Shown: positions 1,550 through 18,213, counted from the stretch's first letter. The stretch is DNA of 32,000 bases from Propionibacterium freudenreichii subsp. freudenreichii (GCF_000940845.1 NZ_CP010341.1:1800001-1832000); one strand, 5' to 3'. Notes: a model not told the origin generated them from the letters alone. Numbers and translations: made by a program.

Positions 1550-1572
1550 CAGGAACTCGCCTTGAATCGCTC
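1550..1572 (-). repeat. possible fifth, strongly decayed relic of the ychF 3' end (R5)
   Basis: Plus-strand ggaactc(gcc)ttgaatcgctcat aligns to copy R3 ggaactc(caccacga)ttcgatcgctcat. Shared 7-mer, 11/13 block including the 9-mer atcgctcat (= ATGAGCGAT on the minus strand), 5-nt gap. Same orientation as the other copies, about 60 nt upstream of the zinc-ribbon gene. Confidence 0.3.
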
Positions 1573-2177
1573 ATCTGCATTCGTCGCGCGGTCAGCGGTC
1601 CGCGCGTTCCTCTCGGGTGGGGGTGAGGAAGATCGAGAGAATAATATCGGAACTCATGGGTTCCTGTGGTCGGGGTCGGGACTCGTCCTTCCCCGTCGGC
1701 CCCACCGAGCCGACGGTACGTCTCCGCGCCATGTGAACGACTCGAGCCAATGGCATGCCCGTCTGCGGCGAACGCGGGGCCCGCAGAGTCTTCTGTCCCG
1801 TCTAGGCGACCAAGTGACGTTTGATTCCGACAACCTCGTCACGCAACGTCTGTAGCTCTGGTCGGTCACCGGTCACTCGAAGGATCTGCCGTCACAGGCC
1901 TTGGACGGACAGCCACACCCAAGCCCCGAGGTCACGCCAACCCGACAGCAACGAGTTCCCTCAGCCGCCAAATGACCCTCCCAGTTGACTCGCATTCCGC
2001 TAGGGCGGCTCAGCCGTGACGGATATCAGGGCACCAACTCCATCGGATGAGCAGTCGGCGGGACCACACAAGCATCCCGCCCGGACAGGGACGGACTGTC
2101 GTCGGCAGGTGACGTCTTATAGGACTGATGGCAGGCCAGCCCGTCGATTCGACCACGAATTGCCCTCACGCTTCGTC

Positions 2178-2735
2178 TCATGCTCCGGAGAGCCTTGCGT
2201 TCACGTCATCTCCCGACCATCCCATGGGGGGACTAGGAACATGCCAAAATGGCTTGGAATACATGTGCTTTCCATTGGTCAACTCCACGTCAGCACGAAA
2301 CATGTAGCCCACCATGGTGGAGTAGTCGAACGGTGGGACGCTCAGTGAAACCGCCCACGCTTCGCTAGTTCCCGACGCAAGGTTCACGGGATCCCCGAAG
2401 CCGGTTGGTGGCAAACCAGCTCTAGACAGTGTCGGAATGTCATTCACCGAACCCATGGCGGGTTCTTGAGTTGATTCGGAGGACTCCCCCACGAGCTCAA
2501 AGCCGAGCCGGGCGATCGCGATGGGAGCACCCTCGGTGGTTACGGTGACTGTCACGTAGGACCGAGTCGAAACGCTCTTCCCATCCCCCGCCGGAATCCC
2601 AACTGACTGTGACTGACAAGTGACATATTTCCGACGGCGATTCGTCCACCACTCCGCCAACCTCACCACAGCAAGAACGATCGAAATGATTAAGACCGCG
2701 AGCCCTATCCAGTTCACGGCGAGCGACGCACCCAC
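2178..2735 (-). CDS. hypothetical single-pass membrane protein (185 aa)
   Basis: GTG start at 2735 preceded by gagggggaaagcta (SD-like). N-terminal TM helix (WIGLAVLIISIVLAVVRLAEWW) followed by RRRK, then a beta-rich soluble domain. No family recognised. Lower-GC island DNA. Confidence 0.5.
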   Translation of the reverse strand: MGASLAVNWIGLAVLIISIVLAVVRLAEWWTNRRRKYVTCQSQSVGIPAGDGKSVSTRSYVTVTVTTEGAPIAIARLGFELVGESSESTQEPAMGSVNDIPTLSRAGLPPTGFGDPVNLASGTSEAWAVSLSVPPFDYSTMVGYMFRADVELTNGKHMYSKPFWHVPSPPMGWSGDDVNARLSGA

Positions 2736-2812
2736 TAGCTTTCCCCCTCACCCCAGGTTCCCGAACCAGATGTTGTTCCAGCCACCGGGGCCCGCGTCCC
2801 AGTAGCCATAGC

Positions 2813-2851
2813 TCAGACGTTGAACCGGAACTCCACCGCGTTCCGGCACAT
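2813..2851 (-). repeat. relic of the canonical ychF 3' end (R4), encodes MCRNAVEFRFNV*
   Basis: Minus strand reads atg tgc cgg aac gcg gtg gag ttc cgg ttc aac gtc tga. It shares ggtggagttccg (12 nt) and aacgtctg (8 nt) with the real ychF end, and gaactccaccgc (12 nt, plus strand) with copy R2. It lacks the 5-nt insertion present in R1-R3. Confidence 0.7.
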
Positions 2852-3031
2852 AGGTACATCTGAACACGGGGTTCACGTGCGCCCTCTCCCCACGGTCAGT
2901 GCTCGCTACTGATCAGGGGACACAGGCTCACCCTCGACGTGGGTCAGCCTGCTGGACGCCACGAAGGCGGTAGCGCGCCATCACGGCGGCAGGGAACCCG
3001 GCTGAGACGCCACATACTAGGGATCTGAAGA

Positions 3032-3059
3032 GGGCTCGACCATGCCAGCGGTCGGCCCC
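3032..3059 (-). terminator. possible stem-loop at the stop codon of the 667-aa ORF
   Basis: gggctcgacc (3032-3041) and ggtcggcccc (3050-3059) can form about 9 bp with one bulged T and an 8-nt loop. No U-tract. Weak call. Confidence 0.25.
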
Positions 3060-5005
3060 TATTCCTTCGCGAGCACGGCGTTATCCGTCAGGCAGAAGTC
3101 ATCGTTGATCTTGATGACCAGCGCAACGAGTAGGCGGAGCGCTGTTAGATACGTGTGGCGGTGAACGCGGTCGTCGTCACCGTCTGCCTGTGATCCATGG
3201 AGGTAGCGGTTGCGCAGGCTAGGTCCGTTGCTGAACTCCTTATCGTTAAGGAAGTAGTTGAAGTAGCTGACCTCCGCGGCGCTGAGCAGCGTTGATCGAT
3301 GCGCCAGCCATCCGGCGCTCACCATCTCGTCAATGGCTTTCTGGCCGGCCGCCGAGTGATGGAGACAGCTCGTCACCTCGCACTCCCAGAGTTCCTTGAG
3401 CACATGCAATTGTGGCGCGCTTGCAAACGCAATTCGGTCACGATCTCCGGTCAGGATGCCCTTCTCGACCAGGAAGTCGATGTTGCGCTGTTGGTACTCG
3501 TGGAACTGGTCGTAGGCGATGTCATTGGCGATGACCAAGTGGAGGAAGCTCTCTGCCTCCAGATCGCTGCTGATGTGCACCAATCCGGATTGGTCCGAGA
3601 AGAGCAGGTGCTGAATTCCTTGGATGTCTGCGTTGTTGGCAACGTAGGCGTACTTATCCACAACCTGACTCGGGATGTCGCCGTAGGAAAGCTGCCCCGA
3701 TGTGATTGTCAGCAGCTCCGGGTCAACCTCGCCGTAGTCGACATGCAGCGTGAACTGCTTGAGGACGCTCTCCATCTCTGAGAACAGATGGCGGCTCTTC
3801 TCAAGGTAGGTAGCGGTCGGGCTGGAGGCGCGGTACTTCAGCCCCTTGGCACCGAACTCCTGCTCAAGGTAGTCCGTGAAGAACCAAGCGATGACCAACT
3901 CGAGCTCTATACCTTCGGAGCTGAGGAAGCGCTCGTACATCAAGGTCTGGAGCAAGGACGCCTGGTCCTGGAGCCTGAACGCCGCCCCCGTCCGGTAGTC
4001 GCCCTTGCCCGGCGTACCCATGAACCGCTCGAAGACGCCAAGTTGCGCTCCGTAGGAAGGGAGTTCCAGGAGCATGTGGTCGTTGGCGAACTGGAACAGG
4101 TGAACGAAGTTATTCAGGATAGTCGGGTAGTCGAGGTTCTCCGTGAGCCAGGTTCGACTGTAGGAGTACTTGCCAACCATGCCGTCCAAAGACTTGACGA
4201 CCTCTTCGACCTGATCGGCCGAGATGCCCACTTCGCAGCCGGTCTTGATCCCCTCCGTGGACTCGAACATCTTCTTCGTGAGCGCATCTGCCTTGCGACG
4301 AGCCTTTAGCTTCAGTCGTGCATCGACGCCGGTGTTCTTGTCAGCTCGTGCGGATGCGATCAGCTTGACGAAGTTGAGGTTGGGCTCTTCCTCATCGAGG
4401 TAGCGGTCAAACAGGCCACGCTGATCCGCGGGAGTGAAGCTCTTCGGAAGATGGATTGGATCCCGCCCCTCGGACTGGAGGAACTTCCGCGCAAGCAGCT
4501 CAGCATTGCGCGGCCCAGCGAGTAGCAGGGCCCGAATCTCCTGGTCGTAGGCACGCACGAGTGCCTGGCATGAGAGCAGATCGTGCGGGTGGAAACTCTG
4601 CTCTTGAAGTGCAGCAAGCACGATCGAGTCAGTGCAGCGCTCGAAGACCTTGTTCTTTCCGAGGAGGTCGAGGACGTCTGTGCGGTACTGAAAGTCAACG
4701 TCCTGAACGAGCGTTGAGAAGGTGGCGTCAGTCACTTTGCCGAAAAACCTGCCGATGACTTTCCGGATCTCGGGGCCGTGCGCCAGAGGCGCGTCTCGCT
4801 CTGCTTCGGCCAGGTCCTTCGGGAGAACTTTGTGTTCTAGGAACAACGCGAGATGATGCAACTCAACGATGTCGTTTATGCCTTGATCGCCACGAGTAGC
4901 ATCGAATTCACGGACGAGCTCTAGGAGGCGGTCGGCCTGCCAGAAGGTTCCGTAGTCGCTGAGGCCGAAGAACTTCAGTCTCTTCTCTGGTCCGCTTTCC
5001 GACAC
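3059..5005 (-). CDS. large hypothetical protein with C-terminal HEPN-like RNxxxH motif (648 aa from GTG 5005; ORF open to 5062 = 667 aa)
   Basis: Long uninterrupted ORF in lower-GC DNA. GTG at 5003-5005 is preceded by gggagggagattcga (strong SD), so it is preferred over GTG 5062. C-terminus reads ...FSNGPSLRNRYLHGSQADGDDDRVHRHTYLTALRLLVALVIKI (R-N-x3-H followed by a helix). The remainder is helical with no recognised family. Confidence 0.65.
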   Translation of the reverse strand: MSESGPEKRLKFFGLSDYGTFWQADRLLELVREFDATRGDQGINDIVELHHLALFLEHKVLPKDLAEAERDAPLAHGPEIRKVIGRFFGKVTDATFSTLVQDVDFQYRTDVLDLLGKNKVFERCTDSIVLAALQEQSFHPHDLLSCQALVRAYDQEIRALLLAGPRNAELLARKFLQSEGRDPIHLPKSFTPADQRGLFDRYLDEEEPNLNFVKLIASARADKNTGVDARLKLKARRKADALTKKMFESTEGIKTGCEVGISADQVEEVVKSLDGMVGKYSYSRTWLTENLDYPTILNNFVHLFQFANDHMLLELPSYGAQLGVFERFMGTPGKGDYRTGAAFRLQDQASLLQTLMYERFLSSEGIELELVIAWFFTDYLEQEFGAKGLKYRASSPTATYLEKSRHLFSEMESVLKQFTLHVDYGEVDPELLTITSGQLSYGDIPSQVVDKYAYVANNADIQGIQHLLFSDQSGLVHISSDLEAESFLHLVIANDIAYDQFHEYQQRNIDFLVEKGILTGDRDRIAFASAPQLHVLKELWECEVTSCLHHSAAGQKAIDEMVSAGWLAHRSTLLSAAEVSYFNYFLNDKEFSNGPSLRNRYLHGSQADGDDDRVHRHTYLTALRLLVALVIKINDDFCLTDNAVLAKE

Positions 5006-5436
5006 TCGAATCTCCCTCCCGGTAGGCGTCACTCTATACAGTTCGGGGGCGCCTAGTGGCACGAATTTGAAGTTGTTGCCTGATCGTGCAGCAGTCCCCT
5101 TGGGCGGAGCCGTCGTCCACGTCGATCGTTGCGCCGGCTCCTCGTTCTGTCGTGGAAGCGAGCCGAACTAGCGGCGCATCACCCCGAGGCGGACACGACC
5201 TACGTCTCCATGGGCATAATCCCGCGCCCCATCGGGCTCCTCCCCACCGCGGAGCGGCGCACGACGGACGATGCACAACTACGCGGGTAGGTCCCTTGCA
5301 AAAGCGCCGGGCACTAGTCCTGACTCAACACTCGACAAGAATCATCAACGAATCTCACTAGTTATTGATGGGCCTACCCTGGTTTTTCGGACACTTGATG
5401 TGGCGGGGCCTGGTGGCCCTGGGGGAAGGTGTTGTC

Positions 5437-5742
5437 ATGAGCACGGGGAACGAGAAGACGCGGAGGCAGCGTCGCAAGTTCACGGCACAGTACCGCCATG
5501 AGGCGGCGAGGATGGTGATCGACTCGGGTCGCACGATCGCCGAGGTCGCCCAGGAACTGGGGCTGGGTCCCCAACTGTTGGGCAGGTGGGTGAAGGCAGA
5601 GAAGGAGACCATGACGCCGAGCACGTTGAGTCCGGATGAACGCGAGGAGTTGAAGCGGCTCCGCAAGGAGAACGCGGACCTGCGGATGGACAACGAGTTC
5701 TTGGGAAAAGCAGCGGCCTTCTTCGCTGCGAAGCATCAGTGA
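5437..5742 (+). CDS. IS3-family transposase OrfA (HTH, 101 aa)
   Basis: ATG 5437 after gggggaaggtgttgtc. MSTGNEKTRRQRRKFTAQYRHEAARMVIDSGRTIAEVAQELGLGPQLLGRWVKAEKE... is a typical IS3/IS911 OrfA with a leucine-zipper-like tail. Confidence 0.85.
   Translation: MSTGNEKTRRQRRKFTAQYRHEAARMVIDSGRTIAEVAQELGLGPQLLGRWVKAEKETMTPSTLSPDEREELKRLRKENADLRMDNEFLGKAAAFFAAKHQ
5703..5709 (+). promoter_or_regulatory. candidate programmed -1 ribosomal frameshift heptamer G_GGA_AAA (IS3 orfA to orfB)
   Basis: In the orfA frame the codons are ttg gga aaa gca, giving the X_XXY_YYZ pattern gggaaaa. The -1 frame is open from here into orfB (..LGKSSGLLRCEASVSEKYTLMQ..). Confidence 0.5.
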
Positions 5743-6360
5743 GTGAGAAGTACACGCTGATGCAGGCGGAGAAGGCTCGGTACCCGATTGCCCGGATGGC
5801 CCGCCTGTTGAAAGTGTCCACTTCCGGGTACTACGCGTGGGTTGCGGCCCAGCAGCGGGATGGGGATCATCTTCTCCCCAGCCTCCGGGCGCGTCGGCGC
5901 CTGGATGAGGCGGTGCGCCGCATATGGGTGGACTCCCGAAGCACGTACGGGTACCTGCGTGTGTGCGCCCAGCTTCGCCGTGAGGGGGTGGTGGTGGATC
6001 GTAAGACGGTGGCGGCCTTGATGCGCCGTCAGGGCCTTGCGGGCATCAGCCCGCGCCGGTTCCGTCCGGTGACGACGATACCGGGGACGCGCACGCATTC
6101 GATCCCTGACCGGGTCAAGCGACACTGGGACACGGGGCAGGTGGATCGCGTGTGGGTCACCGGCATCACCTACCTGAGGACGCGGGCCGGGTGGGTGTAC
6201 CTGTGCGCCATCAAGGACGCTTGCTCCCGGAAGGTCATCGCAACCGCCATGTCGACGACCATGACGACGGACCTCGTGGAGGAGGCGTTGCGTTCGGGCT
6301 CGCATTCTTCGCCCGAACGCGCCCAGGAAAGTGATCATCCATTCCGACCGTGGCACGCAA
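5739..6360 (+). pseudogene. IS3-family transposase OrfB, N-terminal part (frameshifted, truncated by IS30 insertion)
   Basis: YPIARMARLLKVSTSGYYAW... and ITYLRTRAGWVYLCAIKDACSRKVIA (HTH_21 and start of rve). The best-matching reading moves from frame 0 (..LVEEAL) to frame 2 (AFGLAFFARTRPGK*) to frame 1 (VIIHSDRGTQ) between about 6290 and 6333, implying two indels. Confidence 0.8.
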
Positions 6361-7857
6361 GGTGAATTCAACTGGTCGTCGCAACACCTTGACCGTGGAG
6401 GTGTTCAGCTGTGGCGACGAGGGACTGGGCCGCGAAGACGAGCGATGTGCCCGAGGGTGCGCGTCGGCAATGGCGTGCGGATCGGGCGTTGCGTCCGCCG
6501 ATGCGTTCGCCCGGGCGGCCTGAGCCCTCGCGGGCGGTGCAGCGGCAGTTCTGGCGTCTGATCGCGACGGGCATCACCTCAGCCGAAGCGGCTCTGAAGG
6601 TGGGCGTGTCTGTGCCGGTCGGGTCCCGTTGGTTTCGCCACGCTGGCGGCATGCCACCGATCTCACTTGCCGAGCCCAGCGGCCGTTACCTGTCCTTCGA
6701 GGAGCGTGAGGAGATCGCGCTCCTGCGCGCCAAGCAGGTCGGCGTGCGTGAGATCGCGCGCAGGATCGGCCGCGACCCGGGAACGATCTCCCGCGAACTG
6801 CGCCGCAACGCGGCCACGCGCAGCGGGAAGCAGGAGTACCGGGCGTTGGTAGCGCAATGGAAGGCTCAGCAGACAGCGAAGCGCCCGAAGACGGCGAAGC
6901 TCGCGACCAACGACCGGTTGCGTGAGTACGTTCAGGAGCGCCTCGCCGGAAACGTCTGTCGGCCTGACGGCAGCATCGTCGTGGGGCCGGAACCGCCGGC
7001 ATGGAAGGGGCTGAACAAACCTCACCGGCAGGACCGGCGGTGGGCGACCGCGTGGAGCCCGGAGCAGATCTCGCACCGGCTGAAGGTCGACTTCCCGGAT
7101 GATGAATCCATGCGCATCAGCCACGAGGCGATCTACCAGTCGCTGTTCATTGAGGGCCGTGGTGCGCTCAAACGCGAGCTCGTCACGTGCCTGCGCACCG
7201 GCCGCGCCCTCCGGCAGCCGCGGGCTCGAGCACAGAACCGCCCGCAAGGTCACGTCACCGCCGATGTCGTGTTCTCCGAACGGCCCGCAGCAGCCGCGGA
7301 CCGCGCCGTGCCCGGGCATTGGGAGGGCGACTTGATCATCGGCACGGGCCGGTCCGCGATCGGCACTCTCGTCGAACGCAAGAGCCGGTCGACCCTGCTG
7401 GTGCACCTGCCGAGGCTGGACGGGTGGGGCGAGGCGCCGCCGATCAAGAACGGGCCCGCGTTGGGCGGCTACGGCGCAGTCGCGATGAACGCCGCGCTCA
7501 TCGCGTCGATGATGAAGCTCCCCGAACAGCTCCGCAAGACGCTCACCTGGGACCGCGGCAAAGAACTCTCCGCGCACGCCCAGTTCGCGCTCGAGACGGG
7601 CACGAAGGTGTTCTTCGCCGACCCCCACTCGCCCTGGCAGAGGCCGACGAACGAGAACACCAACGGGTTGCTGCGGCAATACTTCCCGAAGGGCACCGAC
7701 CTCTCACGATGGTCCGCTGAAGACCTCGAAGCAGTCGCCCTCGCACTGAACAACCGACCCCGCAAGAGCCTCGACTGGAAGACCCCCGCCGAAGTATTCC
7801 AGGAGCAGTTACACTCGCTCCAACAACCCGGTGTTGCAACGACCGGTTGAACCCAGG
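6361..7857 (+). mobile_element. IS30-family insertion sequence (1497 bp) inserted in IS3 orfB
   Basis: Terminal inverted repeats ggtgaattcaactggtcgtcgcaacacc versus reverse complement of the right end cctgggttcaaccggtcgttgcaacacc. 3-bp direct duplication caa at 6358-6360 and 7858-7860. Removing 1500 nt restores HSDRGTQ|FTSEQMYE in frame. Confidence 0.9.
6501..7850 (+). CDS. IS30-family transposase (449 aa from ATG 6501; ORF opens at GTG 6411)
   Basis: N-terminal HTH (FWRLIATGITSAEAALKVGVS; REIARRIGRDPGTISRELRRN). DDE region with HWEGDLIIG, TLTWDRGKELS and NENTNGLLRQYFPKGTDL. The stop lies inside the right IR. Confidence 0.9.
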   Translation: MRSPGRPEPSRAVQRQFWRLIATGITSAEAALKVGVSVPVGSRWFRHAGGMPPISLAEPSGRYLSFEEREEIALLRAKQVGVREIARRIGRDPGTISRELRRNAATRSGKQEYRALVAQWKAQQTAKRPKTAKLATNDRLREYVQERLAGNVCRPDGSIVVGPEPPAWKGLNKPHRQDRRWATAWSPEQISHRLKVDFPDDESMRISHEAIYQSLFIEGRGALKRELVTCLRTGRALRQPRARAQNRPQGHVTADVVFSERPAAAADRAVPGHWEGDLIIGTGRSAIGTLVERKSRSTLLVHLPRLDGWGEAPPIKNGPALGGYGAVAMNAALIASMMKLPEQLRKTLTWDRGKELSAHAQFALETGTKVFFADPHSPWQRPTNENTNGLLRQYFPKGTDLSRWSAEDLEAVALALNNRPRKSLDWKTPAEVFQEQLHSLQQPGVATTG

Positions 7858-8148
7858 CAATTCACCTCCGAGCAGATGTATGAGTGCTGCCGGGAACTCC
7901 ACCTCGACCAGTCAATGGGACGCACCGGGGTGTGCTGGGACAATGCGATGATCGAATCCCAGTGGTCCGTGTTGAAGGCTGAGTTCTACGACCGCTACGA
8001 GTGGGACACCCCCCAGCAGGCCATTCAGGGCGTGGAGGAGTGGATCTACGACTTCTACAACACGAAGCGCCTCAACTCAGCGATCGGCTACCAGACCCCA
8101 GTCGAGTTCGAAGCCCAACACGCGGCAGCCCTGACACGGGCCGCCTGA
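7858..8148 (+). pseudogene. IS3-family transposase OrfB, C-terminal part
   Basis: (Q)FTSEQMYECCRELHLDQSMGRTGVCWDNAMIESQWSVLKAEF...KRLNSAIGYQTPVEFE is the rve-domain C-terminus. It continues 6331-6360 in frame once the IS30 is removed. Confidence 0.85.
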
Positions 8149-8184
8149 ACCAATCCAACCGTCCGAAACTTGCGGGTAACCCCA

Positions 8185-8743
8185 GGACCCGTTCCATGTG
8201 GTGGCGTTGGCCGGGGACAAGATGAACCAGACCCGGCAACGAGTGCAGCGGGAACTCACCGGCGGCCGGGGCCGCCGCGACGACCCGCTCTACAAGGCCC
8301 GCCGCCTCCTCCACACCGGTATCGGTCTGCTCACCGAAAGGCAGAACACTCATCTGGATGCGCTGTTCGCCACCGATGACCACGCCGAGGTCGAGATCAC
8401 CTGGAGCGTCTACCAGAACATCATCGCCGCCTACCGCAACCCCGACCGGACCGCAGGGAGGACGGCGTTGTCGAGGCTGATCGACGCGATCAAGACCGGC
8501 GTCCCGAAAGGGCTGGAGGAACTGGCCCAGCTGGGGCGGACCCTCCACAAGCGCCGCTCAGACATCCTGGCGTTCTTCGACCATCCGGGCACCTCGAACG
8601 GTCCAACGGAAGCGATCAACGGCCGTCTCGAGCACCTCCGCGGCATCGCGCTCGGGTTCCGGAACCTGGCCAACTACCGACTCAGGTCACTCCTCGAAGC
8701 CGGCGGCTTCAGACCCCTGCTCCACTCATTTCTGTGAAGAGCC
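8185..8743 (+). pseudogene. ISL3-family element remnant (3' third of transposase plus right IR)
   Basis: The reading frame from 8186 (DPFHVVALAGDKMNQTRQRVQ...GPTEAINGRLEHLRGIALGFRNLANYRLRSLLEAGGF) parallels residues DPFHVVQLAGD...GPTEALNGRLEHLRGSALGFRNL of the full ISL3 at 12750-14185. It ends in ttctgtgaagagcc (ISL3-type IR). The 5' two-thirds are missing, replaced by IS3. Confidence 0.85.
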
Positions 8744-11810: not shown

Positions 11811-11813
11811 GGG

Positions 11814-12749
11814 TCAGTACCGCTCGATCACCGAGACGGTCTGCCCCGACCGAAGCGACGTGAGATTCTGCTTCAGCTCGTGCATGACCGAGAACGGCAC
11901 CGAGTACCCGAAGACGACGAGACGCTTCAGATCGAGCTCACCGGCCTCGAGCTTGGCCACGAGCGCCATCACGTCGTCGCTGTCGAGTCCCGACTCGATG
12001 ACGTAAGCGGAGTCCTCGCAAACCTTCAGCTTGTAGTCATCGAGCCCCACGTCGTTCACCTCAGGCGTCAGGCCGAAACCGTCCTGAACGAGCCAAGTAG
12101 AAAGCGCGACCTGGTCTCCCGGCGTCCCGTGGGACGCAAACTTCGACACGAAATCGCCAGCAAACATCACGCCGTCCTCATTAGGATCGAAGGCCTGAAG
12201 CTGATCGAGCGTCTTCTCACTCGGCTTCTCGAGACGGAATAGACGGAAGCCGTAGTCGATCGTAGCGTTCGACTGATTCTGAATCTGTTCCGCTGAAGCC
12301 TGGATCCGCATCCGGCCAAGCTGGTCGATGGTATCGAATCCTGCCGTCGCCGCTTTCGTGCCGGGCGCTACCTTCTCCGGCCACTGGACTGCAATGTGGC
12401 GACGTGTCCCCGCGTCCTCAGCATTCAACTGCATCACCGCATGAGCGGTCGTTGCCGACCCTGAGAAAAAGTCGAGAACCAGCGCGTCGTCGGGCGCGAA
12501 CGAAACCAAGTACTTAATCAACGGGACAGGCTTCGGATATGGGAAGGGGCAACCCATCTCGGCAAGCGCGTTTCCCGCTGTCTCGACCGTCCCCAGATTC
12601 ATGAGCACGGTCAGAATGTGCTGTTGGTCCGCACGCCGGATCTTGACGTTGTCGATGGCTCCCGTGTTCGTGAGTTCGAAGACCGTGTCCTGCCCCTTGG
12701 AATCAACAACCGGGGCATACTCGCCAGCAATGAAGCTCCGCAGCAAAGC
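11814..12749 (-). pseudogene. mod: type III DNA methyltransferase Mod, C-terminal part (split by ISL3)
   Basis: ..LLRSFIAGEY...PYPKPVPLIKYLVSFAPDDALVLDFFSGSATTAHAVMQLN (AdoMet motif I FxGxG). Joins 14186..15213 in frame after removing the IS and one TSD copy (1028 + 928 nt = 652 codons). Confidence 0.88.
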
Positions 12750-14185
12750 GGCTCTTCACGATTGAGGGTGTAGTTGGGGTCTGAATCCTCCGGCCTCGAG
12801 GAGACTGCGGGCAATGTAGTTCGTCAGGTTTCGGAAGCCCAAGGCTGAGCCGCGCAGGTGTTCCAGTCGGCCATTGAGGGCTTCTGTCGGGCCGTTGGAG
12901 GTGTGGGGGCGCTCGAAGTAGGCCAGGACGTCTGTGGCGCGCCGCTTGAGGGTGCGCCCCAGGGTGATGATCTCAGCGAGGGCGGCGGGAACGCCGCGGC
13001 TGATGACCTCGATGACGTGGGCCAGCTGGGCTCGCCCGGCCTTGGGGTCGGGATCGCGGTAGGCGGCCACGATCTTCTGGTAGATGCCCCAGGTGGCTTC
13101 CACCCCGACGTGAGCGTCCTGGGCGAAGACGCCCTCCAGGCGGGTGCGTTGCTTGTCTGTGAGGAGATCCATCCCGGTGTGCAGGGTCTTGCGCACCCCG
13201 TACAGGGGATCCCCGGACCGGCCTCGATGTCCGGTGGTGTCTTGCTGGACGCGCTGGCGGCAGTGGTCCAGGGCATCGCCGGCGAGCTGGACGACGTGGA
13301 AGGGATCCATGACCTCCACCGCGTCGGGGAGTTCTTCCTTCGCTGCGGTCTTGAACCCGGTGAAGCCGTCCATGGCGACCACCTCAATCCGGTCGCGCCA
13401 CGCAGGGTCTTGCTGGCTGAGCCACTCCTTGAAGGCCTTCTTGGAGCGGCCCTCCACCATGTCCAACAACCTGGCAGGACCCCTTCCCTCGCGCAGCGGG
13501 GTGAGGTCGATGATCACGGTGACGAACTTGTCGCCCCTGCGCGTGTGCCGCCACACGTGCTCGTCCACCCCGATCGTGGTCACACCCTCGAAGCGATGCT
13601 CATCGTTGATGAGGACCCTGCGTCCCTCCTCCAGGACGGAGGTGTTGGCGCAGTCCCAGGACACGCCCAGACCCTCAGCGACCCGGGCGACGGTGAGGTG
13701 TTGGACGACGATGCCCGCCACGGGCCCAACGCAGTCCGCCCCGGGACAGTTTCGAGCGCGGCTGGGCCGCCCCAGTGGTGTCCTGCCTCCACACACGCCC
13801 ACACCCCGAACAGCGGTAGCGACGCACTCGCACCACCAGTGTCACCGGTCTCCAGCCCGAGGGCTCGTGGGCGAGGCGACGGACCACGGTGTCGCGGGGG
13901 ATCCCTTCGCACCCACACTCGCGACACCACCGGTCATCGTCCACCACCCGGCAGGCCACCTCGCAGCGATCCGGGAGGACTCTCTGGCCCACCACCACGA
14001 GGCCGAGGTCATCCAGGCGGGCGAACGTGGTCAGATCGGGGGCAGCAAAGGTAGCGTGGGACACGTCGGGGTCTTTCAGATGGGCAGCGTAGGAACTCCC
14101 ATCATCGGAAGACCCCGACCCTCACACCCACCCCGACACGCCAGCCAGACTCAACCCCCCGCTACACCCCGGATCGCGAAGAGCC
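12750..14185 (-). mobile_element. ISL3-family insertion sequence (1436 bp) inside mod
   Basis: IRs ggctcttcacgattgagggtgtagttgggg (12750->) versus reverse complement of the other end ggctcttcgcgatccggggtgtagcgggggg. Perfect 8-bp target duplication agcaaagc at 12742-12749 and 14186-14193. Confidence 0.92.
12756..14064 (-). pseudogene. ISL3-family transposase, frameshifted
   Basis: The N-terminal zinc-finger part (13675..14064: ...CRECGCEG...YRCSGCGRVWRQD...SRGGLRWA) and the DDE part (12756..13802: ..VAGIVVQHLTVARVAEGLGVSWD...) are in different frames. The switch is near tgggcccgtggcggg (about 13735-13750). Confidence 0.85.
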
Positions 14186-15213
14186 AGCAAAGCACCGTTG
14201 GCCCAGCCGGTCCGTGCCGTCACTCGGTTGATGAGCTTTCCTCCCGCGATAACCAAGTCCACGTCGTAGTTGGGAAACTTGTCGGTTCTCGCGGGGATAA
14301 TCCCTTCGTCGAAGCCAGCTGGAAACCCGGGTTCCAGGACGATCTCGGAGACAGGGTTCTTGGGACCATTCTTGACGACCGAGTTGCGGATCTCGTCGTT
14401 GAACAGCTTGCTCTCGTCGGACAGGTTCGGGTCCTTGACTCCGGCGATGAACATGTCTGGCACACGCTTCGCATACATGTGCACGTACTCGTGATTGATC
14501 TTGACTGTCGCCTGGTTGTCAAGATTCCCATCGGTCCGCCACGCGAAACTCGCGACGAAATTCTGTTCGCCGAACACCTCATCGCACAGCGCCTTGAGAT
14601 TCGCCTGCTCGTTGTCATCGATGCTGATGAAGATGATGCCGTCGTCAGCGAGCAATTCTTTCGCAAGCTCGAGTCGGGGATACATGAAGGTAAGCCACGC
14701 CGAATGCGACGACTTGCCTTGGAGCGCCATCACCCGCTCGGCCTCGTCCTCGTCAAGACCCACCTTTTCGACCAGGTCCTTCGCCGTGAAGCCGAAGTCG
14801 TCGACGTAGACGAACCCATCGGAACCCGTGTTGTACGGCGGATCGATGTAGATGCACTTGACCTGGCCCGCGTACGACCCCAGTAGGTGCTTGAGCGCAT
14901 CCAAGTTGTCACCGACGATGTACAGATTTTCCGACTCAGCGTTCGCCGCCTCAGCGTTGTGCTCGAGGTCAGGGACCATGACCGTCTCGGTCCGCGTCGA
15001 GGTCAGGTACTTGGCGTAGGACTTCCCGAGGAACTTGAGCTCGTAGCCTTCCCTCGTCATCGAAACGTCCGCGGAACTCAGCGCCTCCTGAAGGCGGTCG
15101 AGCCTGAAGCCGCCATCCTTGTCGAAGTACTCCGGCAAGACCGAGCGGAGGCGTGCCAGCTCAAAGTCGTTCGGCTTCGTGGTCTCGTTCGCTTCGTGCG
15201 CGTCCCTGATCAC
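14186..15213 (-). pseudogene. mod: type III DNA methyltransferase Mod, N-terminal part (split by ISL3)
   Basis: GTG start 15213 overlapping the TGA of mini-ORF R3. Catalytic motif IV CIYIDPPYNTGSDGF. The ORF track reading (14122..15213) runs on into the ISL3 IR. Confidence 0.88.
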
Positions 15214-15269
15214 TTCTTACCCCCAGACGTAATTCCCGTACGGAACTCCACCACGATTCGATCGCTCAT
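15210..15269 (-). repeat. ychF 3'-end copy R3 = 19-codon mini-ORF MSDRIVVEFRTGITSGGKK*
   Basis: 39/45 identity to ychF 17122-17166 over the core. Its ATG overlaps the TGA of the 312-aa ORF (ATGA). Its TGA overlaps the GTG of mod (GTGA). Confidence 0.85.
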
Positions 15270-16204
15270 AGTCCGAAATACTCCTTAAATCTCTGCCACA
15301 AGCTGCGATCTTCAGCACCTTCGCCGTGAGGCGCTGCCTGAACGAACTGCACGAAATAGGGCGTGCCGAGTATCACTCGACTCACGAAAGCTTCGCGGTT
15401 GGTCGACGCCGGCCCCCAGTTGAGGTAACTAACTTCAGCACCATCACCGGAGGTCGGGCAGTCGTGTACATCCAGACACATGAACGCAATTTCAACGTTC
15501 TGCTCACGAGAGTCGCTTAGAAGGTTTCTCGCCGCCAGGGCATAGTAGGGATCTCGCAACCAGCGTTCGTCACTATCCTCGCGCTCCTCCCCCAGCATCT
15601 TCGCTCTGAGGAGTTCGAACAGGTGCTCCGTTTGCGATCCACCCCGCCAGTCGGAAACGCTCCCGCCAAGCACCGTCTTAAGCTGACCTTCTGCCGTGCC
15701 GCTGAGCACCACCCAAGTTACGGATTGCGCTTCGTGCACGGGAAGGGTGTCTGGGATCTCAATCAGCCAAAGCCCAAGCCTGGGCGCATCCTCGAGCTCG
15801 TGCGGTTCTCTGAAATCATCATGGGTTCGGATGGCGAAACGGGTTGCTCCTCGGAAGTGATAATCGCGCCCCGGCTCGAACGCGGCACCGCGTTGAGCCG
15901 CAAGTGAGTGCGCTGTCACGTCGGCGAGAACCTCGGGCGCGACCGCGAGGAGCTGACTACGATCGGTGCGGTCGGATACTACGTTCGACTTCACTCCAGC
16001 TTCAAGAGCCCCGCTCACGATGAGACCACCCACGACACCAGCTGGAGAGACAGCGCCGACCCCTTTGGTCTTCGTGCTCGCGCTGTACGAGTGATCGGCG
16101 ATCGTGTGCCTACCAGCGATTAGCGCATCGGCAACCTTGTTTAGCCCTACGTAAAAAGCTCGCGACTGATCAAAGGACGGAGCACCCTCCATGTCGAGTC
16201 TCAT
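15266..16204 (-). CDS. hypothetical protein (312 aa), no recognised family
   Basis: ATG 16204 overlaps the TGA of mini-ORF R2 and is preceded by ctggggggaagaa (SD-like). Gly/Ala-rich hydrophobic stretch GVGAVSPAGVVGGLIVSGALEAGV near the N-terminus. Lower-GC island DNA. Confidence 0.6.
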   Translation of the reverse strand: MRLDMEGAPSFDQSRAFYVGLNKVADALIAGRHTIADHSYSASTKTKGVGAVSPAGVVGGLIVSGALEAGVKSNVVSDRTDRSQLLAVAPEVLADVTAHSLAAQRGAAFEPGRDYHFRGATRFAIRTHDDFREPHELEDAPRLGLWLIEIPDTLPVHEAQSVTWVVLSGTAEGQLKTVLGGSVSDWRGGSQTEHLFELLRAKMLGEEREDSDERWLRDPYYALAARNLLSDSREQNVEIAFMCLDVHDCPTSGDGAEVSYLNWGPASTNREAFVSRVILGTPYFVQFVQAAPHGEGAEDRSLWQRFKEYFGL

Positions 16205-16260
16205 TTCTTCCCCCCAGAGGGTATTCCGCTACAGAACTCCACCGCTTCACGCTTCGTCAT
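16201..16260 (-). repeat. ychF 3'-end copy R2 = 19-codon mini-ORF MTKREAVEFCSGIPSGGKK*
   Basis: 36/45 identity to ychF 17122-17166 over the core. Its TGA overlaps the ATG of the 312-aa ORF (ATGA). Its ATG lies within the last 14 nt of the 292-aa ORF. Confidence 0.85.
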
Positions 16261-17125
16261 CAGGATTACTCAGCCCCCCGGCCTCGGTTCCGATGGACCG
16301 GTCCGAGTGCGCAAGCCTAAGTTGTCCGTCGACGAACTGAGCGATTCGTCGATCGAATCGCTCACCGTGCTTGACCTCACGTCCACCAAAATAGTCTCCG
16401 GACTTGTCTCGCCAGACGAAGGCTTCTGAGAGTCCGTTCTGATAGATCTTCAACAACTGCGGGACGCCGCCGACTGTGCGGACATCGGCGTTATCAATCA
16501 GCCGCTGAAGCACCTGGAGGGGTTCCCAGTCGAGATTCGCCCTCCGCGCCTGCTCGGCTGCCTCCGGATGACCACTGAGCGGACGCGGTGCATTCTTCTC
16601 GTTGAGAATCTGGTAAAGATTCGCCCTAGCTTCCTGGCTAGCGTCACCTGCGAAATAAACCCCGTATGCAGTCGATTCATTCAAGTCACTAATAGACTTC
16701 ATCACCAACTCACCGCGACTGTCGTAACTATACGAGTACGCTTCAAACCGGAGGCGACGCCAAGACCACCCGAATAGCACGACATCGAGGTCCGGAACAT
16801 TAGCCGTCATTTGGCCCCAGGGAAGATCTCCGACGTCTTGACGGCTATCCGCATACAGGTCTCGCAGCTTGTTGGCGAGATATCGAATGTCAGTGCGCCC
16901 GATTTCATTGCCATCAAGTAGCAAGCACGCGTTCATCGCCTGAAGCACGAATGCATACGCCGTTGTTGCGTGTCCTGACATCGCTATTGCAGTCGCCGGA
17001 CGGGGAAGCGGGACAAGCTTGGGGCAACGGTCCCAGCTCTCACCACCGCTCAGTCGAGAGTCACTCACCGCGACCAATTCGCCGAGGGTCGCGTTCCTAC
17101 GAACCCACAACGCAACGAGTGTCAC
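16247..17125 (-). CDS. putative Ntn-hydrolase, HslV/proteasome-beta-like N-terminal domain with about 100-aa C-terminal extension (292 aa)
   Basis: GTG 17125 overlaps the ychF TGA (aagaaGTGAcactc). N-terminus M-TLVALWVRRNATLGELVAVSDSRLSGGESWDRCPKLVPL resembles E. coli HslV [23 protein letters not shown]...KKVRRL (recalled from memory). Thr follows Met, with an Asp about 20 and a Lys about 34 residues later. VYFAGDASQEARANLYQIL is comparable to AIGSGGPYAQAAARALL. Confidence 0.55.
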   Translation of the reverse strand: MTLVALWVRRNATLGELVAVSDSRLSGGESWDRCPKLVPLPRPATAIAMSGHATTAYAFVLQAMNACLLLDGNEIGRTDIRYLANKLRDLYADSRQDVGDLPWGQMTANVPDLDVVLFGWSWRRLRFEAYSYSYDSRGELVMKSISDLNESTAYGVYFAGDASQEARANLYQILNEKNAPRPLSGHPEAAEQARRANLDWEPLQVLQRLIDNADVRTVGGVPQLLKIYQNGLSEAFVWRDKSGDYFGGREVKHGERFDRRIAQFVDGQLRLAHSDRSIGTEAGGLSNPDDEA

Positions 17126-18213
17126 TTCTTGCCGCCAGACGTTAGTCCACTACGGAACTCCACCACGTCCCCGTCCTGCATCACGTATTCCTTGCCCTCA
17201 AGGCGCACGCGACCGGCCGCCTGGGCCTCCTTCATGCCGCCGTACTCGACCAGCTCGTTGAAGCTGACCACCTCGGCCTTGATGAAGCCCTTCTCGAAGT
17301 CGGTGTGGATCACGCCGGCCGCCTGCGGGGCGGTCCAACCCTTGTGGATGGTCCAGGCGCGCGATTCCTTCTCGCCGGCGGTCAGGAAGCTCTGTAGGCC
17401 CAGCGTGTCGTAACCCACCCGCGCCAACTGGTTCAGGCCGGGCTCCTCCACGCCGGTATCGGCGAGGAACTCCGCGGCCTCCTCGTCGCTCATCTCCACC
17501 AGTTCGGACTCGAACTTCGCGTCGAGGAAGATCGCCTCGGCGGGCGCCACGAGCTTGCGGGTGCGGTCCAACAGGTCGGCGTCGGCCAGCTGGTCCTGAT
17601 CGCAGTTGAACACATAGATGTAGGGCTTGGCGGTGAGCAGCCACAGGTCGTGCAACGGCTCGGGATCCAGCCCGGCCTGGAAGATGCCGGTGCCGGCGGC
17701 GAGCGTCTCATAGGCCTTGCGGTAGACCTCCGCCTTGGGTCGCGTCTCCTTGCGGATCGCGGCCTCCTTCTCCACCTTGGGCAGCACCTTCTCCAGGGTC
17801 TGCAGGTCAGCCAGCACCAGCTCGGTGGTGATGGTGTCAAGGTCGGAACCGGGATTCACCTGCCCGTCCACATGGGTCACGTCCACATCGGTGAACATCC
17901 GGGTGACCTGGCAGATCGCATCGGCCTCGCGGATATTGGCGAGGAAGGCGTTGCCCATCCCCTCACCCTGCGAGGCGCCCTTCACGATGCCGGCGATGTC
18001 CACGAAGGTCACCGTGGCCGGCACGAGCTTGGCCGAGTCGAACATCTTGCCCAGCACGTCCAGGCGTCCGTCGGGCACGCCGACCACGCCCACATTCGGC
18101 TCGATCGTCGCGAACGGGTAGTTCGCGGCAAGGGCGTCGTTGCGGGTCAGCGCGTTGAACAGGGTCGATTTGCCGGCGTTGGGGAGGCCGACGATTCCAA
18201 TGGTGAGTGCCAC
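17122..18213 (-). CDS. ychF: redox-regulated ATPase YchF (363 aa) with non-canonical C-terminus
   Basis: MALTIGIVGLPNAGKSTLFNALT (P-loop), TGS-like C-terminal domain. Ends ...YVMQDGDVVEFRSGLTSGGKK* rather than the usual ...F(R/L)FNV*. GTG start at 18213. Confidence 0.95.
   Translation of the reverse strand: MALTIGIVGLPNAGKSTLFNALTRNDALAANYPFATIEPNVGVVGVPDGRLDVLGKMFDSAKLVPATVTFVDIAGIVKGASQGEGMGNAFLANIREADAICQVTRMFTDVDVTHVDGQVNPGSDLDTITTELVLADLQTLEKVLPKVEKEAAIRKETRPKAEVYRKAYETLAAGTGIFQAGLDPEPLHDLWLLTAKPYIYVFNCDQDQLADADLLDRTRKLVAPAEAIFLDAKFESELVEMSDEEAAEFLADTGVEEPGLNQLARVGYDTLGLQSFLTAGEKESRAWTIHKGWTAPQAAGVIHTDFEKGFIKAEVVSFNELVEYGGMKEAQAAGRVRLEGKEYVMQDGDVVEFRSGLTSGGKK

Follow-up and report, generated by a model that had tools for sequence, protein, structure and literature searches.

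The window analysed here is a 32,000-nucleotide stretch of the Propionibacterium freudenreichii subsp. freudenreichii chromosome (NZ_CP010341.1:1800001-1832000), in which ychF is followed by an array of genes lying between copies of its 3' end. Every cargo gene of the array is on the ychF strand, and the gaps between genes are -4, 42 and 52 nt. The features discussed below are listed in the direction in which ychF is read:

17122-18213, minus strand: ychF, 363 aa, with Pfam MMR_HSR1 and YchF-GTPase_C domains
17122-17184, minus strand: attL, with a B arm from ychF, the core GGTGGAGTTCCG and a P' arm TAGTGGACTAACGTCTGGCGGCAAGAAGTGA from the element
2826-17152, minus strand: the 14,327-bp insertion in its entirety, a three-module composite delimited by comparison with strain L188
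16247-17125, minus strand: gene of module 1, 292 aa, predicted proteasome-beta/Ntn-hydrolase-like fold
16201-16262, minus strand: internal junction 1, with a short core-proximal left arm, core and full P' arm; PWM score 60.3
15266-16204, minus strand: gene of module 2, 312 aa, with homologues directly after ychF elsewhere
15210-15271, minus strand: internal junction 2, core and P' arm; PWM score 75.3
11814-15213, minus strand: mod, type III R-M methyltransferase (PADLOC MTase_III, 1.6e-104 and 1.3e-49)
8835-11810, minus strand: res, type III restriction enzyme, 991 aa (PADLOC REase_III, 1.2e-252)
5365-8737, plus strand: IS nest (Pfam DDE_Tnp_ISL3, HTH_Tnp_1, rve, rve_3, HTH_38)
8198-8737, plus strand: ISL3 transposase fragment in the IS nest
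5365-6365 and 7831-8148, plus strand: IS3-family orfA/orfB, interrupted by an IS30-family element
6411-7850, plus strand: IS30-family element within the IS3-family orfA/orfB
3059-5062, minus strand: candidate defence gene, 667 aa (PADLOC PDC-S56, PDLC05039, 1.5e-246)
2813-2862, minus strand: attR, with a P arm CAGATGTA...CGGAACGCGGTG from the element, the core GAGTTCCG and the original ychF end GTTCAACGTCTGA

Met1-Thr2 is near-invariant among homologues of the 292-aa protein of module 1, and the AlphaFold model of this protein (pLDDT 88.5) aligns with the Mycobacterium tuberculosis proteasome beta subunit in Foldseek (E 2e-9, TM 0.51/0.64). The protein is thus predicted to be Ntn-hydrolase-like, and the label 'protease-like', used for one gene in a preliminary description of the region, is reasonable for it. 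The 312-aa protein of module 2 has no match in Pfam, PADLOC or PDB folds. In module 3, an ISL3 insertion at 12750-14184, with a 9-bp target duplication and a transposase identified by Pfam, splits mod, which is intact (651 aa) in loci L169 and L170. A HEPN-like protein had also been named among the content, a label that was not confirmed; the 667-aa protein matches the PADLOC candidate PDC-S56, and its cluster (at least 90% identity) spans Kocuria, Corynebacterium and Tessaracoccus. The cargo consists mostly of anti-phage genes, and the array is a defence island. Other elements of the preliminary description hold: the module genes are co-oriented with ychF, and G+C drops inside the region, to 0.57-0.61 in the cargo segments of the island (~0.68-0.70 in IS-rich stretches) against 0.65-0.72 beyond ychF. 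The window contains no tRNA gene and, as had been noted, no serine or tyrosine recombinase was found in it; tblastn searches with four members of the large serine recombinase (LSR) family discussed below returned neither an LSR nor an LSR fragment, even at E<=10.

A single insertion into the ychF core

The boundaries of the island were defined by comparison with L188, a strain of the same species in which ychF is uninterrupted and the site is empty. Positions 1-11061 of L188 correspond to window positions 28281-17153 with at least 99.5% identity, and positions 11043-13886 to window positions 2844-1 with 99.9% identity; the two sequences are collinear throughout, with the exception of window positions 2826-17152, and the flanks outside the core are 99.5-99.9% identical. 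Both breakpoints between the empty and the occupied site fall inside a shared core of 17-19 nt, which forms an imperfect repeat. The core octamer GAGTTCCG of attL lies at 17153-17160, with homology to L188 stopping at 17153, and the right flank of attR is identical to the empty site. This comparison shows that 2826-17152 is a single insertion into the ychF core GGTGGAGTTCCG, giving a hybrid attL and attR at a short, specific attB without a long target duplication.

Insertion changes the C-terminus of YchF. The last nine codons (SGLTSGGKK) are inserted DNA replacing the canonical FNV, and the ending ...EFRFNV becomes ...EFRSGLTSGGKK; the reading frame stays open, at 363 aa with a swapped tail. 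The canonical 357-aa YchF is also present within P. freudenreichii, and a short canonical-type tail (354-355 aligned residues) is found in 69 of 78 relatives, ending in EFRFNV in most and in FNN, FSS, FNI or FNL-type sequences in some. When both strands of the window were scanned with a PWM for the alternative tail, built from 15 copies, exactly three 45-nt copies were found, all on the ychF strand, at 17122-17166 (score 70.8), 16201-16245 (60.3) and 15210-15254 (75.3). No further match scored 5 or more on either strand, and there were no off-context matches in 1.56 Mb of related loci. A fourth copy is the displaced canonical tail at 2813-2833, made up of the core GAGTTCCG (2826-2833) and GTTCAACGTCTGA. 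Four to five tail copies had been proposed for the region; the three alternative tails and the displaced canonical one account for four, but the fifth, near 1572 (GAGTTCCTG at 1550-1558), lies in sequence 99.9% identical to the empty-site strain. The 185-aa gene (2178-2735), previously regarded as a further module, likewise lies in L188-identical sequence outside the island, which therefore ends at 2826 and not at 1550. The core-to-core lengths of the three remaining modules, 921, 991 and 12,415 nt, agree with the earlier estimates of 0.9, 1.0 and 12.4 kb.

Within P. freudenreichii, the interval between ychF and the zinc-ribbon gene exists in at least six states: empty, the array of the window, a GmrSD island, a DUF4238/DUF7380 island, an island with TIR-TPR and type I R-M genes, and an element of more than 10 kb with an LSR. 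All of the breakpoints lie in the ychF core. The preliminary description had put forward a comparison of related genomes as a test of its view, and the view withstands it: the interval is polymorphic, with alternative occupants of one site. An origin of the repeats without any mobile element, in which the end of ychF was duplicated locally or copied by gene conversion in a vertically inherited interval, would be in keeping with the retrieved same-species contigs that carry this exact ychF, all of which have the same array. We give this explanation practically no weight: it is contradicted by the empty site in the same species, with flanks 99.9% identical, and at least four other occupants share the core, the G+C of the island is low, its cargo proteins are at least 90% identical across orders, and the alternative tail is common to several families. 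The uniformity of these contigs does mean that there is no sign of present cassette turnover in this lineage.

Architecture of the attachment sites

Consensus sequences were derived from 46 x-B', 35 B-P' and 59 B-B' sites. The reconstructed attP has a conserved span of ~54 bp with dyad symmetry, TT.CG.....GA..AAC[A/G]TC being present on both arms, while attB consists of ~44 bp with imperfect dyad symmetry formed by the last codons of ychF. A spacing of 9 nt separates the distal motif AACGTCTG from the core in P', against 4 nt in B', which amounts to a 5-bp shift; on the left arm GATG is at -27 in P versus -22 in B, with weaker support for the B arm. Serine integrases make a 2-bp staggered cut at a central dinucleotide; in the ychF sites the symmetry centre would be the GGTG just 5' of GAGTTC, and the crossover is likely to fall within the core. 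That the distal motif of attP lies 5 bp further from the core than that of attB is a rule known from LI/A118-type integrase structures, and the architecture of the sites, as far as their sequences indicate, fits serine integrases.

The P' sites are closely linked to the genes that follow them. A same-strand ORF begins within 60 nt at all 48 sites examined, and its start codon overlaps the tail stop at 20 of them. In the window, the stop codon of ychF and the start codon of the 292-aa gene share the terminal GTGA of attL; the tail stop shares ATGA with the 312-aa gene's start at internal junction 1, and GTGA with that of mod at internal junction 2. The P arm of attR has a PWM score of 18.4, compared with 4.2 for the 99.9th percentile of the null distribution. 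The internal junctions keep only ~17 nt of left arm and have P-arm scores of -24.2 (junction 1) and -9.3 (junction 2); since the distal P-arm motif is absent from both, they are not complete attP sites. This motif is likewise absent from most single-gene cassette junctions in other loci.

Promoterless, co-oriented and mostly single-gene modules with a conserved repeat between them, one expression signal and no recombinase in the array are features shared with integrons and CALINs, and a resemblance to integron cassettes had been pointed out previously. This resemblance holds for function only, and an integron mechanism is not supported. The three repeats fold no better than shuffled sequences on either strand (z -0.16 to +1.59), and neither IntI, attI and Pc nor attC sites able to form hairpins are present; what is repeated is the end of a protein gene, a coding, double-stranded serine-integrase half-site with the dyad symmetry of attB and attP. 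No tyrosine integrase is present in the window or the inspected ychF-linked islands, where the co-occurring enzyme is an LSR. An integron-like platform, with a tyrosine integrase supplied from elsewhere acting on folded single-stranded attC-like sites, is in our judgement extremely improbable.

Recurrence of the modules and the associated recombinase

The tail EFR[TS]GLTSG[GS]KK was found in 9 of 78 sampled actinobacterial species loci, and in addition in Frigoribacterium and Rothia. It marks insertions in Cutibacterium, Tessaracoccus, Kocuria, Trueperella, Rothia and others, with displaced canonical tails downstream of the alternative tails, on the same strand in every case. Homologues of the 292-aa gene adjoin ychF in Frigoribacterium and Rothia, and another lies between att copies on a metagenome contig without ychF (L084); those of the 312-aa gene directly follow ychF in Cryobacterium and Scardovia. 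The 292-aa module measures 921 nt from att to att both in the window, where it is first in rank, and in Rothia locus L082, where it is second, and its homology to L082 and L084 ends at internal junction 1. Homology to L165 ends at internal junction 2, and in Cryobacterium the 312-aa module recurs beside ychF at another rank, again with homology ending at the repeats. In L082, two single-gene modules lie between ychF and an LSR-type element; from the att copy onwards, this third module shares 85% identity with the LSR element found in L001. Tandem arrays like that of the window are present in L008, L011, L022, L082 and L117. The preliminary view that modules are bounded by the repeats is therefore upheld between genera as well, and the ychF 3' end is a widely used, barely described insertion hotspot in Actinobacteria. 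Between genera, the cassettes have diverged (67-75% at nucleotide level) to a degree similar to that of ychF (72-75%), which indicates that cassette transfers are old or rare.

Modules might also be shuffled by homologous recombination, with ychF and the 45-nt P' repeats serving as portable homology after DNA uptake, so that mini-cassettes would need no site-specific enzyme. Between genomes, P' copies can share 80-89% identity over 46 nt, and ychF is a long conserved anchor. We consider this explanation unlikely: breakpoints occur at the core and are not spread through ychF, and the association with an LSR is strong. Furthermore, identity between the repeats of a single array is no higher than 65-87% and perfect matches are short, which would make them a poor RecA substrate.

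As the window has no LSR, the link to a recombinase rests on its relatives. LSR genes in related ychF islands encode proteins of 510-524 aa with Resolvase and Recombinase domains and a Cys-rich zinc-ribbon motif, which can be aligned over their full length to actinophage serine integrases, their best annotated matches, with ~31% identity. An LSR was identified by Pfam in L001, L054 and L118, is a pseudogene in L011 and truncated in L081; the same-species element of L199/L201 carries one together with ORFs of 783-896 aa. In 55 of 80 metagenome loci found with this LSR, the contig, which is often short, also bears ychF or an att of the ychF-tail type (34 of 43 at an LSR identity of at least 60%, 21 of 37 below 60%). 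The alternative tail co-occurs with one LSR clade, and catalysis of the insertion by this LSR appears probable; the array of the window, where the gene is absent, is a recombinase-less derivative. Among the related loci inspected, genes with Phage_integrase or Phage_int_SAM domains were seen only in L166, a locus without ychF.

The res and mod genes of the window share 85% nucleotide identity (88% amino acid identity for Res) with those of L125, in which the LSR adjoins attR, and 87.6% nucleotide identity with those of L118, in which the LSR gene directly follows res. Similarity to both extends as far as the res stop codon and gives way there to the ISL3 fragment. By its position, the IS nest seems to occupy the place expected for the LSR gene, and the LSR of the third module was probably lost where the nest now sits. 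Tandem att-bounded modules without a recombinase are the signature of CIMEs in streptococci, which the array matches, and accretion of ICE, IME or CIME-type elements at the ychF 3' end through a tyrosine recombinase might be envisaged. This is very unlikely, given that neither tyrosine recombinase nor conjugation genes are present in the window or the inspected ychF-linked islands, and that intact relatives carry an LSR.

Assembly of the array and its relation to known systems

The mapped ends of the insertion, the polymorphism of the site, its association with an LSR and the recurrence of cassettes bounded by repeats lead us to conclude with high confidence that the region is an SCC-type composite genomic island, built and integrated by an LSR at the ~44-bp attB of ychF. 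The mechanism, which the preliminary description had left unknown, is now assigned to the serine-integrase type through the LSRs of relatives, and its proposal of SCC-like serial site-specific integration is supported by the associated LSR, the conserved frame and the tandem recombinase-less modules. The closest analogues are SCC/SCCmec and pseudo-SCC elements at rlmH (orfX) of staphylococci, together with the Enterococcus cassette chromosome (PMC6222049). As in SCC, LSR insertion takes place in the 3' end of a housekeeping gene with its reading frame kept, the integration site is directly repeated between tandem elements, modules without a recombinase occur that rely on supply in trans, and the cargo is of accessory and defence type; in the window, three P' copies and attR delimit three modules, each without an LSR. 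The island nevertheless differs from SCC in its target, ychF and not rlmH, in its Actinomycetota hosts, and in an LSR clade that is nearest, among annotated matches, to actinophage integrases (~31% identity). It also rewrites the C-terminal tail of a host protein, its att arm gives the first cargo gene a ribosome-binding context and an overlapping start codon, and a module may consist of one gene of 0.9-1.0 kb accompanied by a half att site. In its working the region is SCC-like, without being a member of that family.

A 2024 study names ychF as a newly established site at which pipolins encoding LSRs integrate in Actinomycetota (Mateo-Caceres et al., NAR 2024, PMC11551731). These pipolins resemble the window island in target, phylum, recombinase class and their role as a reservoir of defence genes; in the passages of the study that were consulted, att anatomy, alternative YchF tails, tandem arrays and recombinase-less cassettes were not found. 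No match to a family-B DNA polymerase, the primer-independent form of which (piPolB) is the mark of pipolins, was obtained among the island proteins scanned (the 292-aa, 312-aa and PDC-S56 proteins against Pfam and PADLOC, Mod and Res against PADLOC, the IS ORFs against Pfam), and the element is therefore not a pipolin. The ychF LSRs and their sites are also similar to the actinophage serine integrases phiC31 and Bxb1, which share Resolvase and Recombinase domains and a Cys-rich zinc ribbon, and an attB of ~44 bp and attP of ~54 bp with imperfect dyad symmetry and a 5-bp motif shift; the window, however, contains no phage genes, and no directionality factor was found. Serine integrases of the canonical kind are known to join attP to attB and to act on no other pair. 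From such enzymes neither tandem stacking nor half-site junctions would be expected, and this rule alone does not explain stacking or cassette-level mobility.

In the model we propose, recombination would occur in the core GGTGGAGTTCCG, where the incoming P' arm would complete the ychF frame with the new tail SGLTSGGKK. Besides this tail, the arm has a run rich in purines that resembles a Shine-Dalgarno sequence, and a stop codon that overlaps the first cargo start codon, a layout that suggests that the cargo is expressed through read-through from ychF and translational coupling to it. The canonical ychF tail now lies 14.3 kb away, behind the P arm of the element. The 292-aa cassette, the 312-aa cassette and a mosaic module with mod-res and PDC-S56 follow in this order, each starting with its own P' copy. 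The modules were probably stacked in earlier hosts, through successive recombination events at the core they share, and the stack most likely entered, or persisted in, the lineage as a single unit bounded by attL and attR. Single-gene cassettes with a half att site that also serves as a signal for translational coupling do not seem to have been described.

The mini-cassettes may have been mobilised in trans. Alternatively, the single-gene modules could be deletion derivatives of full LSR elements, from which the region between the end of the first gene and the core of the next element was removed, by the LSR at a pseudo-site or by some other deletion, and which later became passengers of larger arrays. 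We regard this as the less probable course, though one to be taken seriously: the internal junctions have only ~17 nt of left arm and no P-arm motif, the 292-aa gene of L081 is fused to a truncated LSR (residues 1-217), and turnover within the species is not seen. Against it, the same 921-nt att-to-att module has different ranks and neighbours across genera, and the two modules ahead of a conserved LSR-type element in L082 are more easily derived by insertion at the core than by repeated precise deletions.

Under the model of LSR-driven assembly, the LSR gene of the third module, expected right after res, would have been lost to the IS nest, leaving the array immobile unless an LSR is provided in trans. 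The array is decaying, with mod split by ISL3 and the 292-aa gene frameshifted in sister strains, and it looks here like an inherited, decaying fossil and not an active platform.

The ychF end, its copies and the empty site

The YchF protein of the window is an exact match to a known P. freudenreichii protein (AJQ91317.1/WP_044636283.1), and its C-terminal tail is unusual. A short canonical-type tail occurs in 69 of 78 related actinobacterial loci, mostly ...DGDVVEFRFNV, with FNN-, FSS-, FNI- and FNL-type variants. Two further copies of the 45-nt sequence that encodes this tail (GTGGTGGAGTTCCGTAGTGGACTAACGTCTGGCGGCAAGAAGTGA on the gene strand) lie downstream; with a position weight matrix (PWM) constructed from 15 alternative tails, the window copies scored 70.8, 60.3 and 75.3, and neither strand of the window held another copy with a score above 5. 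When applied to 1.56 Mb of related loci, this matrix matched only ychF ends and cassette boundaries, all of them on the ychF strand. Every alternative-tail copy terminates in GTGA or ATGA, whose GTG or ATG serves as start codon for the gene that follows. G+C content is 0.57-0.61 over most of the cargo, approximately 0.68-0.70 over the IS elements and 0.65-0.72 beyond ychF.

Features of the ychF-linked array in the window
17122-18213, minus strand: ychF, product ending ...DGDVVEFRSGLTSGGKK
16247-17125: 292-aa gene (module 1), starting inside a tail copy
16201-16245: second copy of the 45-nt tail sequence
15266-16204: 312-aa gene (module 2), starting inside a tail copy
15210-15254: third copy of the 45-nt tail sequence
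15213: start of mod (module 3), inside a tail copy
8737-5365: IS nest, an ISL3 transposase fragment followed by an IS3 element interrupted by an IS30 element
2813-2862: fourth, differing copy (attR, the hybrid site at the far end), with the shared core GAGTTCCG and then GTTCAACGTCTGA, the canonical FNV-stop

A 34-nt tandem repeat (18228-18336; 3.2 copies, 98% matches) separates the M18 aminopeptidase gene from the start of ychF. The gap between these genes is 95, 129 or 163 nt across P. freudenreichii contigs, that is, it varies in 34-nt steps, and assembly breaks are frequent at this repeat in the species.

Comparison with L188 (CP120880.1), a P. freudenreichii genome whose YchF has 357 aa, defines the extent of the island. 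The alignment consists of two blocks, L188 1-11061 with window 28281-17153 and L188 11043-13886 with window 2844-1, the latter at 99.9% identity; window 2826-17152 (14,327 bp) is therefore one insertion into the ychF core, with the junction repeats GGGACGTGGTGGAGTTCCG and GGAACGCGGTGGAGTTCCG at its ends. The preliminary description had counted four to five ychF-tail copies and extended the array down to 1550. Four of the copies are real; the proposed fifth, at 1572, matches only in GAGTTCC and an upstream ATGCAG, has a spacing that suits neither arm type and lies in the flank kept at the empty site, and it was rejected as a module boundary. As the 185-aa gene (2178-2735) and the zinc-ribbon gene, both formerly taken for modules, lie in this same flank, they are not modules either, and the island ends at 2826. 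The 185-aa gene, just beyond attR, has a low G+C content of about 0.60; its product gave no match in Pfam and PADLOC scans and clusters at ≥90% identity only with P. freudenreichii or metagenome sequences. It is found at the empty site and may represent older foreign DNA, though without att evidence.

When compared between strains, as had been proposed, the interval from ychF to the zinc-ribbon gene carries different DNA at the same core, with breakpoints within the ychF tail: homology to the empty site breaks there in every alternative occupant (L189, L190, L193 and L194-L202).

Alternative occupants of the ychF site in P. freudenreichii loci (locus; inserted element; YchF tail)
L194-L198; 4.65-kb GmrSD island; EFKFAPVTPGKS
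L199-L202; >10-kb element with a terminase-like gene, a small resolvase and a reverse-oriented large serine recombinase (LSR); EFRFGKA
L189; TIR-TPR and type I R-M island; canonical residues in other codons
L190, L193; DUF4238 and DUF7380/EMARD island; canonical residues in other codons

All retrieved P. freudenreichii strains with an exactly matching YchF carry the same array, and vary only in an ISL3 insertion in mod and in frameshifts of the 292-aa gene. At least four YchF C-termini occur in the species among L188-L202 (RFNV, RSGLTSGGKK, KFAPVTPGKS and RFGKA, leaving out 356- and 360-aa forms), each paired with a different inserted element.

Att-site anatomy and the class of recombinase

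Sorting of 153 distinct sites by their ychF-side (attB; B, B') and element-side (attP; P, P') arms gave 59 B-B', 35 B-P', 46 x-B' and 13 x-P' sites. Most x-B' sites have the left arm cAGATGTT-n13-CGGAAnnCGGTG in common, and the P arm of the window attR scores 18.4, against a null 99.9th percentile of 4.2. When joined, the P and P' arms give a conserved span of approximately 54 bp with dyad symmetry, in which TT.CG.....GA..AAC[A/G]TC is found on both sides of a centre at the GGTG just 5' of GAGTTC. Between the core and the distal motif AACGTCTG there are 9 nt in P' and 4 nt in canonical B'; the left-arm GATG is at -27 in P and at -22 in B. Serine-integrase sites are known to carry the distal motif 5 bp farther from the centre in attP than in attB, a hallmark seen in integrase-DNA structures of the LI/A118 type. 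The repeats do not fold into attC-like hairpins better than shuffled sequence, which argues against an attC-like substrate, and the integron mechanism considered earlier is rejected. No tRNA or tmRNA att site lies in the window.

Three other approaches to the sites were abandoned. The LSR C-terminus (V-E/D-W-R-stop) as the P arm was unsupported by alignment of L001, L054 and L011; counting loose 12-mer cores to measure strand asymmetry gave excess background matches in high-GC coding DNA and was replaced by 17-mer and PWM scans; and a B-arm PWM for calling internal left arms ychF-like was uninformative because the model was too strict.

Alternative YchF tails were called within the 78 loci in Cutibacterium namnetense, C. 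porci, Tessaracoccus, Propioniferax, Friedmanniella, Parenemella, Trueperella, Citricoccus and Kocuria, and outside this set in Frigoribacterium and Rothia. Three alternative-tail islands (L001, L054 and, as a pseudogene, L011) encode a protein of 510-518 aa with mutual identities of 71-90%. The L054 protein and a related 524-aa protein from L118 have Resolvase and Recombinase domains, and the former can be aligned over its full length to annotated serine integrases of actinophages (~31% identity). A metagenome scan with the LSR as query returned 80 loci, and ychF or a ychF-tail att site was present on the LSR contig in 34 of 43 loci at ≥60% identity and in 21 of 37 more distant ones. The LSR gene is either co-oriented with ychF, at times immediately past the tail (L095, L098-L100, L102), or reverse-oriented and adjoining attR (L123, L125, L128, L133 and others). 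From these sequence comparisons, the enzyme class behind the ychF-tail islands is identified as large serine recombinase. The SCC-like reading of the preliminary description is thus supported, now with a named enzyme class, and its observation that the window encodes no recombinase is borne out for this class, as LSR remnants were not detected there even at E≤10.

Single-gene cassettes and module 3

The internal junctions of the window, like other single-gene cassette junctions, keep only ~17 nt of left arm; without the distal P-arm motif, these are half sites. B-P', x-P', P-P', P-B' and x-B' junctions all occur across arrays, and the large element is proximal to the small cassettes in L011 and distal to them in the window and in L082 (Rothia). 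In L026 (Parenemella), part of the ychF 3' end, with the canonical tail, is present in duplicate (17354-17425; ≥59 nt identical) 6.3 kb downstream of the alternative-tailed ychF, together with two more P-arm/canonical-tail copies (15439 and 17946); a duplicated intact attB-like site is unexpected on simple integration alone. Duplicated B' half-sites stand back to back, 18-23 nt apart (GAGTTCCGGTTCAACGTGTAG-TTCCGGTTCAACCTCTGG), in L044 (13565-13600, 14374-14410) and L166 (6671-6710), and resemble scars left by nested rounds of integration and excision at one site.

Homologues of the 292-aa protein (73-78% identity) occupy the second rank in ychF-linked co-oriented arrays of Frigoribacterium, after GmrSD, and of Rothia kristinae, after a DUF6414 gene; a third lies between att copies on metagenome contig L084, which lacks ychF. 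Nucleotide homology of the window to L082 and L084 begins at an att copy and breaks off at the following one, and module 1 measures 921 nt from att to att in both the window and L082. Homologues of the 312-aa protein immediately follow ychF in Cryobacterium and Scardovia, and homology of this module between the window and Cryobacterium again extends from att to att. The third module of L082 matches the LSR element of L001 at 85% identity, beginning exactly at an att copy; compared with L001, Rothia thus carries a further two single-gene modules after ychF and before this element. A zinc-ribbon cassette is common to L011 and L022. A same-strand ORF begins within 60 nt of the P' site in all 48 cases examined, with overlapping stop and start codons in 20. 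Cargo would be expressed by read-through from ychF, in line with these ORFs directly after P' sites; scans from ychF to mod found no sigma-70 promoter-like sites, and no terminators on the gene strand, both being weak evidence in an actinobacterium.

Classical serine integrases are known to recombine only attP with attB, a rule that accounts for neither tandem stacking nor the movement of half-site cassettes. One of two possible explanations is that LSRs of the ychF clade would accept mixed sites, a tolerance reported for the SCC Ccr enzymes and for transposon-type LSRs. The small modules could instead be deletion remnants carried as passengers, a reading that we regard as possible, though short of probable. 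A more tentative and rather unlikely proposal is that the ychF-tail repeats are the serine-recombinase counterpart of an integron, in which a half-att site doubles as a translation-coupling signal. Under this integron-counterpart proposal, the half-att unit may comprise the core and P' arm (~48 nt), single promoterless defence genes may enter, stack up and be exchanged in trans downstream of a constitutive housekeeping gene, and a common cassette pool may extend across Propionibacteriales, Micrococcales, Bifidobacteriales and Actinomycetales. If serine integrases do move half-att single-gene cassettes, the strategy would resemble that of integrons but rely on another enzyme.

Module 3 has mosaic homology. 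The window res and distal mod share 85% nucleotide identity with L125, where the LSR gene adjoins attR, and the last 482 nt of res share 87.6% identity with L118, where the LSR gene starts ~130 nt past res; similarity to both stops at the res stop codon (8835). From this alignment we infer that the LSR of module 3 was lost at the IS nest after res. For the right part of the module, which comprises PDC-S56 and the P arm, L125 offers no equivalent, and module 3 was therefore probably fused from two former elements. As no cryptic att copy was found upstream of PDC-S56 or elsewhere in the window (no PWM match ≥5), we infer this split only from the mosaic homology and the IS nest. The array in the window strain, an IS-ridden composite without an LSR, is probably inert.

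ISL3 copies recur in these arrays. One splits the type III mod gene (12750-14184, with a 9-bp target duplication) and is present in L171 and absent from L169 and L170, which are otherwise 99.99-100% identical. An ISL3 element or fragment also lies exactly at the expected LSR position in two independent arrays, after res in the window (8198-8737; compare L118) and after a SMODS gene in L082 (17510-18817; compare L001); this may reflect coincidence or an ISL3 target preference. A third copy adjoins attR in P. freudenreichii L190 and L193 (about 14860-16208).

Relation to known systems and cargo proteins

The nearest analogue of the window array is the SCC/pseudo-SCC composite island at rlmH. Features in common are an LSR, targeting of a housekeeping gene at its 3' end with the reading frame kept, and tandem repeat-bounded modules, some of them recombinase-less. 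The array is not an SCC member, since target, hosts and LSR clade differ. ychF has been named as a new integration site of LSR-encoding pipolins in Actinomycetota (2024; PMC11551731). The DNA polymerase B family is absent from the Pfam and PADLOC matches of the window proteins scanned, and the window element is thus not a pipolin. Within the literature searched, the ychF site has only a one-line mention, and we found no account of att anatomy, alternative YchF tails, within-species polymorphism or half-att single-gene cassettes. Evidence of insertion at the site was present in about 20 of 78 sampled actinobacterial species loci. The assignment to LSRs would name a mechanism for a defence-gene hotspot that is highly polymorphic within a dairy species, where mobile elements rewrite the C-terminus of a universally conserved GTPase in at least four ways. 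The concrete attB/attP pair (~44 and ~54 bp) and the serine-integrase clade are candidate genome-engineering tools for high-GC Gram-positives.

PADLOC assigns mod and res to a type III R-M system and the 667-aa protein to the candidate PDC-S56. Clusters at ≥90% identity for res (8835-11810) and PDC-S56 (3059-5062) include Cutibacterium granulosum, Brevibacterium aurantiacum, Corynebacterium, Kocuria, Glutamicibacter and Blastococcus; they span several actinobacterial orders, with cheese and skin organisms among them, which points to recent inter-order movement of the module 3 cargo. The corresponding clusters of the 292-aa and 312-aa proteins contain P. freudenreichii only. The 312-aa protein had no match in Pfam, PADLOC or the fold search. 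The 292-aa protein is confidently predicted to adopt a proteasome-beta/Ntn-hydrolase fold, with a near-invariant Met1-Thr2; the Thr codon comes immediately after the start codon, which itself lies within the att site, and the gene is frameshifted in several sister strains (151- or 233-aa calls). Elsewhere in the window, a 177-nt direct repeat (25586-25762 and 26154-26330; 71% identity) corresponds to paralogous ASCH domains, one at the C-terminus of an 894-aa thioredoxin-domain protein and the other in a neighbouring 172-aa ASCH gene.
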